Shown here: positions 3,104 through 53,792 of the stretch, piece by piece
Layout: each line of letters starts with the position of its first letter
Numbering within the stretch: position 1 is the first letter of the stretch
From: Dehalococcoidia bacterium
GTDB taxonomy: Bacteria; Chloroflexota; Dehalococcoidia; Dehalococcoidales; BS750m-G39
DNA length: 64,000 nucleotides
Direction: 5' to 3'
Assembly: GCA_030608005.1 (NCBI GenBank)
Contig: JAUWIX010000001.1
Location: 14,375 to 78,374, forward strand
Position numbers and translations under genes: made by a program
The notes under the pieces: generated by a model
Databases searched by the model: none
Told to the model about the DNA's origin: nothing
Seen by the model: only the letters and a program-made list of their open reading frames with translations

Positions 3104-4277
3104 ACATTTGCCCCCTTATCTTTTTGTGGAGATTAGTAAGAAGATTGCCGAGAAAAAGGCTAAGGGTGAGGATATAGTTAGCTTTGGTATAGGCGACCCT
3201 GATATTCCCACACCACCTCACATAATTGATAGGCTATGTCAGGCAGCAAAAGACCCGGCTAATCACCGTTATCCTGAGACTGAGGGTCTGCCTGAATTGC
3301 GCCGGGCTATAGCTGGGTGGTATGAAAGGCGCTTTGGTGTTTCCCTTGACGCTGACAAAGAGGTATTACCCCTCATTGGCTCAAAGGAAGGCATTGCCCA
3401 CATTGCCTTGTGCTTTATTGACTACAGGGATATTGCCCTGATACCTGACCCGGCATATCCCGTTTATTCAATAAGCACCATGTTAGCCGGTGGTAACCCT
3501 TACTATCTGCCACTTATTGAAGAGAACGATTTTCTGCCTGATTTAGATGCCATACCTGCTTATGTCCTAAAAAGTGCCAAGTTATTGTGGATAAGCTATC
3601 CTAATAACCCTACCGGCGCAGTGGCTGACCTCGATTTTTTCAACAGGGTAGTGGAATTCGCTCGGCATCACGACCTAGCTGTCTGTCATGATGGACCGTA
3701 TTCAGAGGTCGCCTTTGATGGCTATCAGCCAGTTAGCTTCATGCAGGCAGAAGGGGCTAAGGAAGTAGGGGTGGAGTTTCACTCCCTGTCTAAAACCTAT
3801 AATATGACCGGGTGGCGAATAGGAATGGTGGTGGGTAACGCTGCCATGGTAGATGCTCTAAAGAGGATTAAGTCAAACTTAGATTCAGGAATTCCGCAGG
3901 CTATTCAATGTGCTGCCATTGAGGCTTTGACTGGTTCCCAAGATTGCATCCAGGAGCACAACGCTATTTATCAAAGACGCCGTGATTTGGTCGTTGATGT
4001 GCTAAATAATATCGGTCTTAAAGCCCAGCCTCCGAAGGCAGGTCTATATATATGGGCTAAGATTCCTGAAGGCTATACCTCTGTGGACTTTGCTACCGAT
4101 TTGTTGGAAAGGGTTGGGGTGGTGGTTACTCCAGGGGTAGGCTATGGCAAGCACGGCGAGGGTTATATACGGTTGTCGCTAACTATCCCGGATGCAGGGC
4201 TGGTGAAAGGTTTATCGCGATTGTCAGCCTGGCGTGATACTAGAAGAAGACTAAAACCGGGAATTGACTTTACATAA
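3066..4277 (+). CDS. dapL: LL-diaminopimelate aminotransferase-like class I/II aminotransferase
   Basis: PPYLF...FGIGDPD N-terminus and SLSKTYNMTGWRIG PLP-lysine motif. It sits next to dapF. The true start is probably the ATG at 3081 or 3087 (MKMSRR). Confidence 0.7.
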   Translation: MENGQMKMSRRVEHLPPYLFVEISKKIAEKKAKGEDIVSFGIGDPDIPTPPHIIDRLCQAAKDPANHRYPETEGLPELRRAIAGWYERRFGVSLDADKEVLPLIGSKEGIAHIALCFIDYRDIALIPDPAYPVYSISTMLAGGNPYYLPLIEENDFLPDLDAIPAYVLKSAKLLWISYPNNPTGAVADLDFFNRVVEFARHHDLAVCHDGPYSEVAFDGYQPVSFMQAEGAKEVGVEFHSLSKTYNMTGWRIGMVVGNAAMVDALKRIKSNLDSGIPQAIQCAAIEALTGSQDCIQEHNAIYQRRRDLVVDVLNNIGLKAQPPKAGLYIWAKIPEGYTSVDFATDLLERVGVVVTPGVGYGKHGEGYIRLSLTIPDAGLVKGLSRLSAWRDTRRRLKPGIDFT

Positions 4278-46664: not shown

Positions 46665-47518
46665 ATGAACGAACTAAACATATCAGAGAAAATTCCAAAA
46701 CAGATTAGAAAGTGGACCTGCCACAAGCTTGAGTGCTTTGCTGACTATATTGAAGCCTATACCAGAACGCTGGACAATAATAAGTGTTGCTACCTGGAGC
46801 TATATGCCGGATGTGGCAACTGTATCTGTAAAGGCACCGACTGTGTTATTGAAGACTCAGCACTTCGGGCATTAAGAACCAAAACTAAATTTGATAAGTA
46901 TATGTTTGTGGTAACAGACCACCAAAACGCTAGAAGCCTGAAGCGACTATCAACCCCACACGATACTGCCAATACTGTAGAAATAATAACTGGTAACTGC
47001 ATTAATGAGAAGGTTATCCAGCAGGTATTTGACCTTATTCCCCGCTCAGCATCTAGCCTTGCCCTCATTGACCCCCCGGGATATAGGAAGCTACGCTGGT
47101 CAACAATCAAAAAGCTAGCTGCCCACGGGAAGGACTGGAAAGGCCATAAAATGGAGCTACTCATAATCTTCCCTCTAGAAATGGCTCTCCTGCGGAATTT
47201 AACCCGCCCAGAGTGCGAAGCCTCAATAACCAGGCTCTATGGAAACCGCAAATGGCAGGAGATTAAACAAAACAAATTGGTGGGCAAAATAGGGCTAGGC
47301 AAAGCTAGACAGCGGCTGGCGGAGTTATATAAAGCTGGTCTTAAAGGTTTGGGCTATAGACACATCACCGATTTTAAACCCAGCCGCTTCTCCAAACCTC
47401 CCGTTTACCACATAATTTTAGCCAGTGATAGCGATAGCAGAGCCAAAATCCTGGAGGAGGCTTGGGGCAAGGAGAGATACCTACCCTGCGAGCTACTCTA
47501 CAGCAGGAAAGATAGACC

Positions 47519-47522
<4 letters not shown>
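46665..47522 (+). CDS. TcmP-like protein (three-Cys-motif partner protein family, tentative)
   Basis: 285 aa. WT.HKLE.F..YIEAY...L......YLELYAGCG, later IDPPGY....W.TI..LA, and ELLIIFP match the TcmP family as I remember it. The gene is more AT-rich than eno. Confidence 0.45.
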
Positions 47523-49554
<2,032 letters not shown>

Positions 49555-49571
49555 CAGTACTATAGTAGGAA

Positions 49572-49601
49572 TTGACATTCTGGCATAACCGTGCTTAAAA
49601 T
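49572..49601 (+). promoter_or_regulatory. sigma70-type promoter of the first tubulin-like gene
   Basis: TTGACA (49572-49577), a 17/18-nt spacer, then TGcTTAAAAT (extended -10). The sequence is almost identical to the one in front of the second gene. Confidence 0.6.
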
Positions 49602-49631
49602 AAGACAATATTTTTAACAGCGAGGTGGATG

Positions 49632-50807
49632 ATGAAGCTAGTAGTAATAGGTTTTGGTCAGTGTGGGTGCAACATTGCTGATGAATTTTATGCCATTAAC
49701 AACCATGCTAAATCAATTTTTAATCGTAAGATTGAGATCTTAACCGATGCTTTTGCCATTAACACCGATGAGGCGGACTTAGGTGGTTTTAGGCATATTC
49801 CTAAGGATAGACACCATAGGATTGTGATTGGCGGTGTGAGAACCTTCGGGCATGGAGTTGGCAAAATGAATGTCGATGGTGCCAAGATTATTAAAGAAAG
49901 TTACACGGTTATCACTGATAATATTTTGGAGTCAAGAAAATTTCATGAGACCGATGGAGTTCTAGCCATAGCCAGTGGAAGCGGGGGCACCGGGTCTGGA
50001 GCAATTGGTTGGGCAATAAAGAAACTTAAGGAGAGGATAGAGAAACCAGTTTACGCCGCAGTAGTTCTCCCCTTTGGATATGAAGAAAACGGGGTTACTT
50101 CCTATGCAATAACCAACACTGCCACCTGTCTCAAGACAGTAAACCAATATGCTGATGCTGTGTTCTTGCTTGATAATGAACGGTTTGCCAGAAGGGGCTA
50201 CAGCTTCGCCCGAAATCTGCACCAAATAAATCTCGAATTCGTCAACAATTTCTATGACCTTTTCTGCGCCGGGGAGGAGAGAAGACCGCAATACCTAGGA
50301 AGCAAAGTGATAGATGCAGGAGATATTAAACAGACACTTGAAGGCATTTCCTCCATTGGCAGGGGGCAGATTGACCTTGCCACCTTTTATCGCTGGAGTA
50401 AGGAGCATTTTCGGGAAGAAGCAAGGGAAAGTAGCGCAGTAGCTGGAGCCTTAGATAAAGCCATGAATAACCTGTCTGTGTCAATTGACTTAAAGGATGC
50501 CAGGAAGATTCTGGTTCTACTCACTGCTCAGAAAGGGGTTATTACCCTGAATGCCTTGGAAGAGGTCGCTACTCTGTTACAAGAGAGGGCTCCTAGAGCT
50601 GTAATAAGAATGGGTGATTATCCTAGAAGGGGAAAGGAGATCTCTCTAACTTTAGTTGCTTCCAGCTTAGCCAAAGTGGTCAGGGTAGAGAATCTATATC
50701 TTCAAGCTAAAGATTTATTTAAACAGCAGGCGAAGCTAAATAGAGAAACCCAAGAGCAAATTCAACAGTTGCATCAGACTGGCAAGGAGCTTCCCAGCTT
50801 GGATTAA
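49632..50807 (+). CDS. tubulin/FtsZ-superfamily GTPase, CetZ/tubulin-like, paralog 1
   Basis: T1 GFGQCG, GHGVG, T4 SGGTGSG, LPFGYEE, LLDNERF, T7-like VIDAGDIKQTL, and RMGDYPRRG. The helical tail ends in KELPSLD. I chose the ATG at 49632 by alignment with paralog 2 (GAGGTG-N4-ATGAAG). The ORF track starts at 49629. Confidence 0.85.
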   Translation: MKLVVIGFGQCGCNIADEFYAINNHAKSIFNRKIEILTDAFAINTDEADLGGFRHIPKDRHHRIVIGGVRTFGHGVGKMNVDGAKIIKESYTVITDNILESRKFHETDGVLAIASGSGGTGSGAIGWAIKKLKERIEKPVYAAVVLPFGYEENGVTSYAITNTATCLKTVNQYADAVFLLDNERFARRGYSFARNLHQINLEFVNNFYDLFCAGEERRPQYLGSKVIDAGDIKQTLEGISSIGRGQIDLATFYRWSKEHFREEARESSAVAGALDKAMNNLSVSIDLKDARKILVLLTAQKGVITLNALEEVATLLQERAPRAVIRMGDYPRRGKEISLTLVASSLAKVVRVENLYLQAKDLFKQQAKLNRETQEQIQQLHQTGKELPSLD

Positions 50808-50812
50808 ATATG

Positions 50813-50842
50813 TTGACATTGCTAAAGAACTATGCTTAAAAT
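50813..50842 (+). promoter_or_regulatory. sigma70-type promoter of the second tubulin-like gene
   Basis: TTGACA (50813-50818), a spacer, then TGcTTAAAAT. It is followed by the conserved ATTTTTAA and the GAGGTG Shine-Dalgarno. Confidence 0.6.
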
Positions 50843-50873
50843 AACAACAACATTTTTAATATTGAGGTGAAAA

Positions 50874-52049
50874 ATGAAGTTAGTGGTTGTGGGTCTTGGA
50901 CAATGCGGCGACAGGATTGCTGATGAGTTTGCCCGACTAAATAGAAGGGCACGTAGTCAGCGCGGGGTTGAGATAATTACCGGTGCCTTCGCTGTAAACA
51001 CTGATGCCGCTGACTTAAGTGGGCTACAAACTATAAAAGCTGATTACCAGCATAGAATCCTCATCGGAACTCGAAGGACCGGGGGCCATGGTGTAGGTAA
51101 AATAAATGAGCTGGGGGCTGAAATAGCCAAAGAGGACAGCGATAAGATTATAGATGCCATAAGAACAGCCCAGCGCTTCTTTGAGACCGATGCCTTCTTA
51201 TTGGTCGCCGGTGCTGCCGGCGGCACTGGCTCAGGGGGAATACCGATAGTTGCCCAGATGATAAGGGAGCGCTATGTGTCTAAGCCAATCTATGCCCTGA
51301 CTATTCTCCCCTTCGCTCATGAAGAGGAAACTGAGGAAAGAACTGTTTATAATTCAGCCACTTGCCTTAAGTCCCTCTATCCAGAGGTCGATGCCGTCTT
51401 TCTGGCTGACAATCAAAGGTATATCGGCAAGGACTTCTCGCTTACAAATAACCTATCTAAGATCAATACCTTAATAGTTGACTCATTCTACAACTTGCTC
51501 TGCGCTGGTGAAGAGACAAAACGCAAGCATATTGGGGCAAGGACGGTTGATGCCGGAGACATAATACAGACTTTGGTAGGCTGGACAGTAATAGGCTATG
51601 GCAAATCACCATTGCCTATCTTCAGGTGGTTTCCCTTCTTCGGAAGAAACTTCATAAAGAAGAGTATTGAAACTCACCGAGGAATCCGGGCCATGGATGA
51701 AGCCATAAGTGAGCTGTCAGCTAAATGCATTCCTTCGGATTCAGGTAGAGCCCTATACCTCGTCTCGGCACCACCTAGAGACATGAATATGGACCTGGTT
51801 AAGGACCTGGGAAATTATCTGAAAGATATAGCTCCAGAGGCAGTGATAAGGAACGGCGATTATCCCAGGCAAAAGAGCTTGATTGATGTAACCCTAATTC
51901 TGTCTGAGCTTAATATTGTGGATAAGGTAAAGGGGTACTATAACAAGGCAAGCGGCGTTGTTCACGAGCTTAAAGGAAGGCGAGACGAGTTCGAGCGCAA
52001 ACTTAGAGAAATAGAGGAGGCATCAAAGGACCTACCCTCATTAATATAA
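50874..52049 (+). CDS. tubulin/FtsZ-superfamily GTPase, CetZ/tubulin-like, paralog 2
   Basis: T1 GLGQCG, GHGVG, T4 AGGTGSG, LPFAHEE, LADNQRY, T7-like TVDAGDIIQTL, and RNGDYPRQK. The helical tail ends in KDLPSLI. Confidence 0.85.
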   Translation: MKLVVVGLGQCGDRIADEFARLNRRARSQRGVEIITGAFAVNTDAADLSGLQTIKADYQHRILIGTRRTGGHGVGKINELGAEIAKEDSDKIIDAIRTAQRFFETDAFLLVAGAAGGTGSGGIPIVAQMIRERYVSKPIYALTILPFAHEEETEERTVYNSATCLKSLYPEVDAVFLADNQRYIGKDFSLTNNLSKINTLIVDSFYNLLCAGEETKRKHIGARTVDAGDIIQTLVGWTVIGYGKSPLPIFRWFPFFGRNFIKKSIETHRGIRAMDEAISELSAKCIPSDSGRALYLVSAPPRDMNMDLVKDLGNYLKDIAPEAVIRNGDYPRQKSLIDVTLILSELNIVDKVKGYYNKASGVVHELKGRRDEFERKLREIEEASKDLPSLI

Positions 52050-52072
52050 ACAGGCTATCCAAGCCCATTTTG

Positions 52073-52133
52073 CCAGCTTTACTAGTTAAGGCAGAGCCAA
52101 AGAGTGATTCAGACTAGTAAAGCTGGTTTTTTT
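52073..52133 (+). terminator. rho-independent terminator after the tubulin-like pair
   Basis: Perfect 14-bp stem CCAGCTTTACTAGT (52073-52086) / ACTAGTAAAGCTGG (52113-52126), followed by T7 (52127-52133). Confidence 0.8.
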
Positions 52134-52220
52134 ATTTAATAACCAGGAAATTCAGTCTTATATGCTCAGAAACCCCCTTTGGAAACCAGATAATATGGGG
52201 TATAATAAAAGCAAACGAAA

Positions 52221-53792
52221 ATGGCATCCCAAGTTTTTTATCGTAAGTGGCGTCCCCAAACCTTAGCTGAGATAGTTGGTCAGGAACAGGTAACACAAAC
52301 TCTGAGTAATGCCCTCAGTAGTGGTCGCGTGTCTCATGCCTATCTTTTCTATGGTCCACGAGGAACAGGCAAGACCAGCACTGGGCGTATTCTGGCTAAG
52401 GCGGTGAACTGCCTTACCAATGGCAGAGGCGAACCCTGTAATGCTTGTGAGATATGCCGGGCAATAACCGAGGGCAGGGCTTTGGATGTGATAGAGATTG
52501 ATGCTGCCAGTAACCGTGGCATTGATGAAATCAGAGACCTTCGCCAGAGGGTTAACTATGCCCCCAACCAAGCCCGCTACAAGGTCTATATTATAGACGA
52601 GGTTCATATGCTCACCAAGGAAGCCTCCAATGCCCTGCTCAAGACCCTTGAGGAACCGCCACCCTATGTTATCTTCATTCTAGCTACCACTGAAGTCCAT
52701 AAAGTCCAGCCCACAATTCTATCCCGATGCCAGCGCTTCGACTTCAGGCGTATTTCTCGGGCAGATGTAGTCTCAAAACTAACCCGTATTTGCGAGGTGG
52801 AAGGTATTCACATAGAGCCAGAAGGACTACGGCTTATTGCCAAAAGCGCTACCGGTAGCTTGCGAGATGCCGAAAACCTGCTGGAACAATTAACCACCTA
52901 CTATGGCACAGAAATTGGGCTCCGCCAGGTTCAGGCCATCCTGGGTATCACCGGAGACCAGAGAGCTAGGGAGCTGGTTCGGCACATTGTAAATAATGAT
53001 ATTTCTGCCGGGGTATCAACTATAAACAGTGCCAATAGCGATGGTCTGGATTTGCACCAATTTAATCGAGAAGTGGTGGAATACCTCAGAGAATTACTGC
53101 TGATAAAGACCGGCTCCGAGGAAGCCGTAGACCTCACCACCGAGGACATAGCTGAACTGAAGGGTCTAGCGGCTAGAGCTTCCCTGGCCCACATATTGAG
53201 GGCAGTAAAGCTCTTTGGTCAGCTCGAGCTTGGTTTTGATAACTACTCCACCTTACCCCTGGAGCTAGCCCTGGTTGACTGTGCCCAACCATCGGTTGAG
53301 GAAAGAGAAAGCCCCCCCACTCAACCCGAATATCAACCTCCCCAGCCGGTAAAAGAGGTCTCCCCACCCACACAGCAACTGGTCAAACCCGAGCCAGCCA
53401 CTGTGCCCAAGGTAGTGCCACCAAAGGCAGAGGGTATTCCTACCACCCCACCAGAACTCAGTAATGAGATTGAGCGATTGAGACTAAATTGGAGACAGGT
53501 TATTGAGCAAGCGCCGGAGAATGCTAAAAGAACCCCCGCTATTGCTATTCTTAGAAGCGCTGGGGTTAAACCGATGGCAATCGAAGGTGATACTGTGGTC
53601 TTAGCCTTTAGATATCCCATTCACAAGGAGAAGATGGAGCAAGTTGAAAACCAACAGGTTGCCGAGAAAATCATAAGCAACTTCCTGGGGCATCCCTGCC
53701 ATGTGCGCTGCATCTATGAGCCAGAAAACAATCACCTAGTGGAAGCAGCAAAAAAGATGGGCGCCCAGATTGTTAGCGTGGAGGAGAAATGA
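52221..53792 (+). CDS. dnaX: DNA polymerase III subunit gamma/tau
   Basis: YRKWRPQ, GPRGTGKTS, the Zn module C...C..C..C, the SRCQRF sensor motif, and a Pro-rich linker. Length is 523 aa. Confidence 0.94.
   Translation: MASQVFYRKWRPQTLAEIVGQEQVTQTLSNALSSGRVSHAYLFYGPRGTGKTSTGRILAKAVNCLTNGRGEPCNACEICRAITEGRALDVIEIDAASNRGIDEIRDLRQRVNYAPNQARYKVYIIDEVHMLTKEASNALLKTLEEPPPYVIFILATTEVHKVQPTILSRCQRFDFRRISRADVVSKLTRICEVEGIHIEPEGLRLIAKSATGSLRDAENLLEQLTTYYGTEIGLRQVQAILGITGDQRARELVRHIVNNDISAGVSTINSANSDGLDLHQFNREVVEYLRELLLIKTGSEEAVDLTTEDIAELKGLAARASLAHILRAVKLFGQLELGFDNYSTLPLELALVDCAQPSVEERESPPTQPEYQPPQPVKEVSPPTQQLVKPEPATVPKVVPPKAEGIPTTPPELSNEIERLRLNWRQVIEQAPENAKRTPAIAILRSAGVKPMAIEGDTVVLAFRYPIHKEKMEQVENQQVAEKIISNFLGHPCHVRCIYEPENNHLVEAAKKMGAQIVSVEEK

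Follow-up and report, generated by a model that had tools for sequence, protein, structure and literature searches.

Why should two neighbouring genes whose proteins have diverged to 41% identity still be preceded by very similar stretches of non-coding DNA? The question is raised by a tandem gene pair, here called g1 and g2, on contig JAUWIX010000001.1 of a Dehalococcoidia bacterium of the order Dehalococcoidales (GenBank assembly GCA_030608005.1). The stretch analysed, referred to as the window, comprises 64,000 nucleotides (nt; 64 kilobases, kb) of this contig, and all positions are counted from its first letter. Both genes encode CetZ-like members of the tubulin superfamily. We propose, as the probable answer, that the two upstream regions are copies of one ancestral, family-specific expression cassette with a sigma-70-type promoter, which was duplicated together with the gene and has been kept since then by purifying selection. 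The elements in question are the following.

49572 to 49579, forward strand: predicted -35 element of promoter 1, TTGACATT, consisting of TTGACA and a conserved TT; matches the family logo described below.
49592 to 49603, forward strand: promoter 1 block TGCTTAAAATAA, with the predicted -10 hexamer TAAAAT at 49596-49601, an 18-nt spacer and a TG 2 nt 5' of the hexamer.
49608 to 49631, forward strand: predicted g1 leader of ~24 nt, with ATTTTTAA at 49610-49617 and the Shine-Dalgarno (SD) sequence GAGGTG at 49622-49627, with its end 4 nt from the ATG.
49632 to 50807, forward strand: g1, a CetZ-like tubulin-superfamily GTPase of 391 amino acids (Pfam Tubulin and CetZ_C).
50813 to 50820, forward strand: predicted -35 element of promoter 2, TTGACATT, 5 nt past the g1 stop codon.
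50833 to 50844, forward strand: promoter 2 block TGCTTAAAATAA, with the predicted -10 hexamer TAAAAT at 50837-50842 and an 18-nt spacer.
50849 to 50873, forward strand: predicted g2 leader of ~25 nt, with ATTTTTAA at 50852-50859 and the SD sequence GAGGTG at 50864-50869.
50874 to 52049, forward strand: g2, the CetZ-like paralogue, 391 amino acids (Pfam Tubulin and CetZ_C).

Four blocks, TTGACATT-N12-TGCTTAAAATAA, ATTTTTAA and GAGGTG, stand before g1 and g2 in the same order and with the same spacing, and both coding sequences begin with ATGAAG. An earlier note on this DNA had drawn attention to the resemblance. The upstream strings it quoted (49570-49637 and 50811-50879) are correct; its description of an alignment "almost base for base" was too strong. 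The similarity is real, but the 62/63-nt upstream regions agree at 44/63 to 46/63 positions (~70-73%), the agreement is concentrated in the four blocks, and the 12-nt promoter spacers match at 4/12 positions. The spacing of N14 that had been given between TTGACATT and TGCTTAAAATAA matches nothing in the window; the blocks are in fact N12 apart, at two sites. In a global alignment of the two regions the observed score is 25, a value reached by none of 5000 shuffles (0/5000; shuffle maximum 11.5), and the longest exact run between them is 12 nt, compared with a maximum of 11 in 5000 shuffles. Scanning the 64-kb window with the pattern TTGACATT-N12-TGCTTAAAATAA (20 specified bases, up to 3 mismatches tolerated) returned just these two sites, where 0.02 were expected. 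A chance resemblance of the upstream regions is excluded.

The coding sequences provide the yardstick for this similarity. In codon alignment g1 and g2 are identical at 48.6% of nucleotides and at 33% of third positions, and their four-fold degenerate sites (n=70) are 31% identical, compared with 25% expected from composition, which implies that neutral positions are essentially randomised. The claim that the control region is conserved far better than the proteins is true in comparison with these averages. It does not extend to the GTP-binding N-terminus, the best coding stretch, which the control region merely equals: over the 84 nt that take in the leader and the first 57 nt of coding sequence identity is 74%, and over 32 nt of the promoter it is 75%.

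Both predicted promoters match the sigma-70 consensus at 11/12 positions (TTGACA 6/6, TAAAAT 5/6). They are the sole 11/12 sites in the 64-kb window, where the next-best sites, 21 in number, reach 10/12. The spacer is 18 nt long in both, within the range of 16-19 nt, and has this length in 54/66 family promoters. Transcription would be expected to start at ~49608 and ~50849, ~7 nt after the -10 hexamer, so that the predicted leaders would begin around the ATTTTTAA box. A consensus -35 and an extended -10 had been proposed earlier; the TTGACA is confirmed, while the "extended -10" label is only approximately right because the -10 is TAAAAT and the preceding TG is separated from it by 2 nt, in place of the single nucleotide of the canonical TGn (TGCT-TAAAAT). 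We also considered a -10 read as TTAAAA, which has a 17-nt spacer and a canonical TGn, and rejected it: position 2 of this hexamer is not A, position 6 is not T, and position 1 varies between T, C and A among the orthologues.

The leader had been described as ~30 nt long with the box and GAGGTG in it; both elements are present, and the predicted length is revised to ~24-25 nt. GAGGTG(A/G) is complementary to the usual 3' end of bacterial 16S rRNA (the window holds no rRNA gene), and among 164 distinct family leaders, which were anchored on the SD sequence for a leader logo, the distance from SD to start codon is 4 nt in 130. The predicted leaders of g1 and g2 are unstructured compared with shuffles (z -0.10 and -0.75, respectively). 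A riboswitch, an attenuator or an internal terminator was rejected as a candidate: the leaders and both intergenic regions (gap-g1 and g1-g2) fold no better than shuffles, and Rfam gave no match in the whole window at gathering thresholds, nor in 49400-52300 at E <= 1. In the g2 leader (50850-50876) CAUUUUU may pair with AAAAAUG around the start codon, with the SD sequence enclosed. This pairing is probably incidental; the g1 leader is without an equivalent, and the fold is no better than that of shuffles.

Are the two control regions a peculiarity of this genome? A scan with one genome per GTDB species yielded 80 loci (individual loci and contigs carry L numbers below) and, including the window, 94 g1- or g2-type genes. 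Identity is 53-81% between g1 and the g1-type genes, and 54-82% between g2 and the g2-type genes. The two types are ~41% identical to each other and form two old paralogue families. The g1-g2 tandem is present in L001, L003-L007, L009-L011, L016 and L063. Many other genomes have a single g2-type gene between gap and dnaX, and the promoter precedes these stand-alone copies too. Upstream of 67/94 homologues there is a sigma-70-like promoter, with an 18-nt spacer in 54 of them; in these 18-nt-spacer family promoters the -10 hexamer ends ~27-33 nt before the ATG. The family logo, built from 51 promoters with an 18-nt spacer, reads TTGACATT-N7-AA(G/C)T(A/G)TGC(T/C)TAAAATA(A/G). Genes of the Dehalococcoides mccartyi (D. 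mccartyi) type have a promoter variant with a 16-nt spacer in which TGnn is retained, and the distant g1-type genes (53-61% identity, L013-L026) are mostly without the promoter.

The reverse question, which genes follow such promoters, was addressed in two collections. In 676 kb, that is the loci plus the window, 79 perfect TTGACA-N16-19-TAnAAT sites were counted, of which 68 are followed by CetZ-like genes and 11 by other genes. A scan of a public metagenome collection for the exact sequence TTGACATT-N12-TGCYTAAAATA matched at least 120 contigs. In 103 among the 120 matches listed, the first residue of a protein of g1 or g2 type is encoded 25-85 nt downstream; three more end at the contig edge yet carry the same leader, and 14 precede unrelated genes, on contigs of varied G+C content. 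The earlier note had regarded occurrence of the sequence before many unrelated genes as the mark of a generic promoter or a repeat; instead, 103-106 among the 120 matches listed precede the CetZ-like family. A regulon reaching beyond this family is unsupported, the 14 non-family matches among the 120 listed being followed by unrelated genes. These comparisons indicate a promoter cassette that is ancestral and specific to this family; it is no generic promoter, nor is it a dispersed repeat.

The spacers, like the bases immediately ahead of the start codon, track orthology, not genome: g1-type genes have a ..ataaccg spacer and GAGGTGGA(T/C)G, g2-type genes ..aaagaac.. (..aaagaacta) and GAGGTGAA. 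The promoters of orthologues agree with those of the window at 68-82% of positions; the four-fold sites of the same genes agree at 41-56% in L003-L007. In L009, L016 and L063 g2 begins ~30 nt after g1 with a GTG start codon and is without a recognisable promoter, which implies that an unneeded or unselected copy does not persist. Taken together, the orthology-tracking spacers, the conservation among orthologues and the promoter loss argue for purifying selection on two functional promoters. The central claim of the earlier note, that each gene has its own promoter, short leader and SD sequence held by selection, is thereby upheld: these elements are conserved despite saturated synonymous sites, and in orthologues.

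We propose that g1 and g2 are two old tandem CetZ-like paralogues, each with its own copy of one ancestral cassette. This cassette would comprise a housekeeping-sigma (sigma-70/SigA) promoter with a perfect TTGACAtt, an 18-nt spacer, a TRTG-like block (..TrTGCy) and TAAAAT, then a ~24-nt leader that is A/U-rich and unstructured, and finally a GAGGTG SD sequence ending 4 nt before ATGAA(A/G). It would have been copied along with the coding sequence at the gene duplication, and likewise at further duplications in the family. Purifying selection would have maintained it since then, most plausibly because each copy needs strong independent transcription. Transcripts would start at promoter 1 and at promoter 2, those from promoter 1 would run on into g2, and all would stop at a hairpin after g2.

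Three kinds of loci deserve mention beside the family survey. Two tandem family promoters stand before one g2-type gene in L131 (reverse strand, from position 534), in L109 and in L032 (3898-4000). In L131 the first of these has a g1-type spacer (..ctaaccg) and the second a g2-type spacer (..aaagaacta), an arrangement suggestive of a lost g1 coding sequence whose promoter was kept. In L016, L063, L008 and L010 a third CetZ-like paralogue is found a few kb downstream, with its own TTGACA-N18-TA(A/C)AAT promoter. Finally, L002, L004, L005, L030 and L032 are contigs with the Dehalococcoidales order gap-g1-g2 or gap-g2-dnaX (some also with dnaX) that were deposited as "Deltaproteobacteria bacterium" or "delta proteobacterium" metagenome-assembled genomes (MAGs); these labels are probably due to mis-binning or mislabelling.

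A number of points weigh against the proposal of a duplicated and selected housekeeping promoter. The activity, the start sites and the strength of both promoters are deduced from their consensus matches, and a literature search for mapped Dehalococcoides promoters or start sites yielded nothing usable. By Escherichia coli (E. coli) rules, a TG block 2 nt from the -10 together with an 18-nt spacer is neither optimal nor a canonical extended -10, the spacer preference of E. coli being 17 nt (PMC12641261). Conservation extends to bases with no known contact to RNA polymerase, AAsT before the TG and A(A/G) behind the hexamer, which may hint at a further DNA-binding factor. The SD sequences of g1 and g2 are ordinary for the genome, ranking 17 and 19 among 52 genes, and the idea of an exceptional SD sequence was discarded on this ground. 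Nor are these promoters alone in being conserved among orthologues: that of dnaX is 70-79% identical across the same genomes, compared with a shuffle baseline of 0.585, and the notable point is conservation across paralogues, not among orthologues. In L006 the paralogous regions, which precede positions 4001 and 5251, agree at 83% of positions and share even leader bases that depart from the consensus (GAAACyCTATA). Lastly, the within-genome identity of the paralogous regions in the window, 0.73, is slightly above the cross-genome paralogue values of 0.57-0.75.

Among the alternatives, the one that fares best, unlikely as we consider it, is that a dedicated transcription factor uses the block AAsTrTGCyTAAAATAr, perhaps together with the leader box, as its operator and coordinates the expression of every CetZ-like paralogue, say in step with growth or the cell cycle. 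Conservation would then reflect the binding site of this factor and not promoter strength alone. A TG at the 2-nt offset is found in 42/66 family promoters and in 6/108 other promoter-like sites, among which the 1-nt offset is the enriched one (15/108, as compared with 4/66 in the family). This displacement, the conserved bases outside those read by the polymerase and the near confinement of the pattern to the CetZ-like family are what a dedicated operator would lead one to expect. The abundance of a D. mccartyi tubulin-like protein points the same way: FtsZ and an "FtsZ/Tubulin GTPase" were both found in D. mccartyi proteomes, and both were less abundant in co-culture than in pure culture (PMC8163811). 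The latter protein presumably corresponds to the g2-type homologue seen in L078. However, the block is without clear dyad or direct-repeat symmetry (at best 4/5 possible pairs, judged by eye), no candidate regulator gene is linked, the neighbours being gap and dnaX, and common descent with selection for a strong promoter fits the same data.

The leader box counts against a dedicated operator too. The earlier note had suggested a common regulator acting at ATTTTTAA, an idea unsupported by the distribution of the box: only close relatives keep it (the L003 g1 leader, L106 and L181), and those one step further away have the degraded forms ATTCTTAA, ATCCCTAA and ATTCTGAA. Across the 164 leaders no position exceeds ~0.45 bit and the consensus is a loose, A/T-rich "ttaata"; with a family-wide logo this flat, ATTTTTAA was rejected as a conserved operator. 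An A/U-rich, unstructured leader that favours translation initiation would be the simpler reading. We regard it as an equally doubtful conjecture that the displaced TRTG-nn-TAAAAT with its AAsT flank is the site of a dedicated regulator or of a lineage-specific sigma recognition that co-controls every Dehalococcoidia CetZ-like paralogue. Were either version true, it would amount to a cytoskeleton or cell-shape regulon in wall-less bacteria, the members of which could be found by the 31-nt signature.

More improbable still is the idea that the tandem copies are kept similar by concerted evolution, through gene conversion of their 5' ends, in place of selection on each promoter. It would account for the repeat that runs at 74% identity from the leader through the first 57 nt of coding sequence, for the 83% identity of the L006 upstream regions down to their non-consensus leader bases, and for a within-genome paralogue identity a little over the cross-genome values. 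Yet identity in the window is limited to the functional blocks, with spacers that match at 4/12 positions and each resemble their orthologues elsewhere, and it is well short of the ~100% expected from recent conversion. Single-copy genomes, which offer no nearby partner for conversion, retain these elements too, and the likeness of the N-terminal coding sequences is explained by the conserved GTP-binding motif MKLVVxGxGQCG. L006 is a candidate for gene conversion, and occasional conversion of 5' ends is possible.

That we are dealing with a generic strong promoter, a dispersed repeat or a chance likeness of two consensus promoters is highly improbable, for although TTGACA, TAAAAT and GAGGTG are each a generic consensus and the SD sequence is ordinary for the genome, there are two copies only in 64 kb, 0/5000 shuffles reach the observed score, 103-106 among the 120 exact metagenome matches listed precede one gene family, and the neighbouring dnaX promoter is conserved but of different sequence.

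How, then, would the two genes be transcribed? The remaining features of the locus bear on this.

48541 to 49554, forward strand: gap (glyceraldehyde-3-phosphate dehydrogenase; Pfam Gp_dh_N and Gp_dh_C), the upstream neighbour.
52072 to 52133, forward strand: predicted intrinsic terminator after g2, a 16-pair stem with perfect arms (52073-52086 and 52113-52126), followed by 7 T.
52179 to 52206, forward strand: predicted dnaX promoter TTGGAA-N16-TATAAT (gGgGTATAAT), conserved and of different sequence.
52221 to 53792, forward strand: dnaX, the downstream neighbour, with its own, different promoter.

The -35 element of promoter 1 lies 17 nt from the gap stop codon. No terminator-like site or stable hairpin was found in the gap-g1 or the g1-g2 intergenic region (fold z +0.81 and +0.59, respectively, against shuffles). 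The absence of a terminator between g1 and g2, stated already in the earlier note, is thus borne out, and g2 would be readable from promoter 1 too. If read-through from promoter 1 is added to transcription from promoter 2, g2 mRNA is expected to be at least as abundant as g1 mRNA. The hairpin after g2 has a predicted energy of -29.8 kcal/mol (z -3.73; 0/200 shuffles as good) and was detected as an inverted repeat; a consensus terminator scan missed it, probably because of its large loop. Stoichiometric co-expression, which had been put forward as a reason for the matched control regions, is unsupported: the same promoter stands before g2-type genes that occur alone (gap-g2-dnaX), and L009, L016 and L063 have dropped the g2 promoter. 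Nor does anything point to an obligate heterodimer in need of matched promoters, some genomes apparently running a plain g1-g2 operon. The dnaX promoter, cccTTTGGAAAcc-..-gGgGTATAAT (52179-52220), is conserved in L003-L006, L029, L032, L033, L036, L038, L042, L052 and L064. The dnaX gene itself is without a recognisable SD sequence, the bases before its ATG being aaaagcaaacgaaa.

The identity of the two proteins follows from profile and structural comparisons. Pfam PF00091 scores 90 and 119 bits and PF21011 (CetZ_C) 60 and 50 bits for g1 and g2, respectively, all above the cut-offs. The top solved relatives of both proteins, 4B46, 4B45 and 3ZID, which we take to be archaeal CetZ proteins (4B46 and 4B45 presumably CetZ1 and CetZ2 of Haloferax volcanii), align over the full length, with E values against 4B46/4B45 of 1e-35 for g1 and 9e-44 for g2; FtsZ and tubulin entries score far lower. 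An FtsZ identity was rejected, since the NCBIfam equivalog TIGR00065 gives 42.3 bits for g1 and 67.7 for g2 at a curated cut-off of 295.2 bits. On these matches we assign both proteins as CetZ-like tubulin homologues and not as FtsZ. Their homologues are named as proteins of Dehalococcoidales or Chloroflexota MAGs. CetZ-like proteins have been reported from Chloroflexota-Dehalococcoidia, where "CetZ-like" denotes sparse paraphyletic groups and not canonical CetZ (PMC9871819).

The g1 reading frame offers two in-frame ATG codons, at 49629 and 49632. We took 49632 as the start because GAGGTG is then 4 nt upstream, as in the majority of the family, because the conserved N-terminus MKLVV results, and because public gene calls of the identical protein use the same start. 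Both paralogues retain the GGTGSG and DAGD motifs. A K(E/D)LPSL motif is conserved at the C-termini of both paralogues and their homologues (50787-50804 and 52029-52046 in the window), with P388 and L390 invariant in 12 sequences; this tail may, like the C-terminal peptide of FtsZ, serve to bind partners. Besides g1 and g2, no homologue of tubulin or FtsZ was found in the 64-kb window. The surroundings are a housekeeping neighbourhood with the gene order pth, a SLOG protein gene, eno, a gene for an unknown 285-amino-acid protein, an HGD-D-like gene, gap, g1, g2, dnaX, ybaB and recR. Pfam gave no match for the open reading frame of 285 amino acids (46665-47522, between the enolase gene and the HGD-D-like gene), to which public gene calls likewise assign no domain.

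The locus documents a promoter that has outlasted gene duplication and divergence to 41% protein identity. We see in it no new kind of regulatory mechanism but a well-supported, if rather ordinary, instance of gene duplication in which the promoter was copied along and then retained by selection. g1 and g2 appear to form separate transcription units, co-transcription being possible as well; this is relevant to annotation and to expression studies of the Dehalococcoidia cytoskeleton, and the consensus promoters suggest strong expression of these poorly studied bacterial CetZ-like proteins. In addition, TTGACATT-N12-TGCYTAAAATA, located ~30 nt before an ATG, is a compact and highly specific metagenome marker for the family.

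Three known systems invite comparison. The btubA-btubB pair of Prosthecobacter forms a single operon and encodes an obligate heterodimer. Like g1-g2, it consists of two diverged tubulin-superfamily paralogues adjacent on one strand; unlike it, g1 and g2 each have their own predicted promoter, g2-type genes often occur alone, and GGTGSG and DAGD are kept in both proteins, so that nothing hints at an alpha/beta-like division of labour. With the archaeal CetZ proteins of Haloferax volcanii g1 and g2 share the full-length alignment and the Pfam Tubulin and CetZ_C domains, whereas their host is bacterial (Dehalococcoidia), and g1 and g2 are known here from sequence. Their control regions, in turn, are closest to sigma-70/SigA promoters with an extended -10 or a Gram-positive "-16" TRTG element. 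The family promoters, which are predicted ones, differ from the known examples in having TGnnTAAAAT in 64% of cases and a spacer of 18 nt as compared with the 17 nt of E. coli, and they share with them the perfect -35, the TAAAAT that matches at 5/6 positions, the spacer range, a TRTG-like motif and, in g1 and g2, a position directly before a short leader with an SD sequence.

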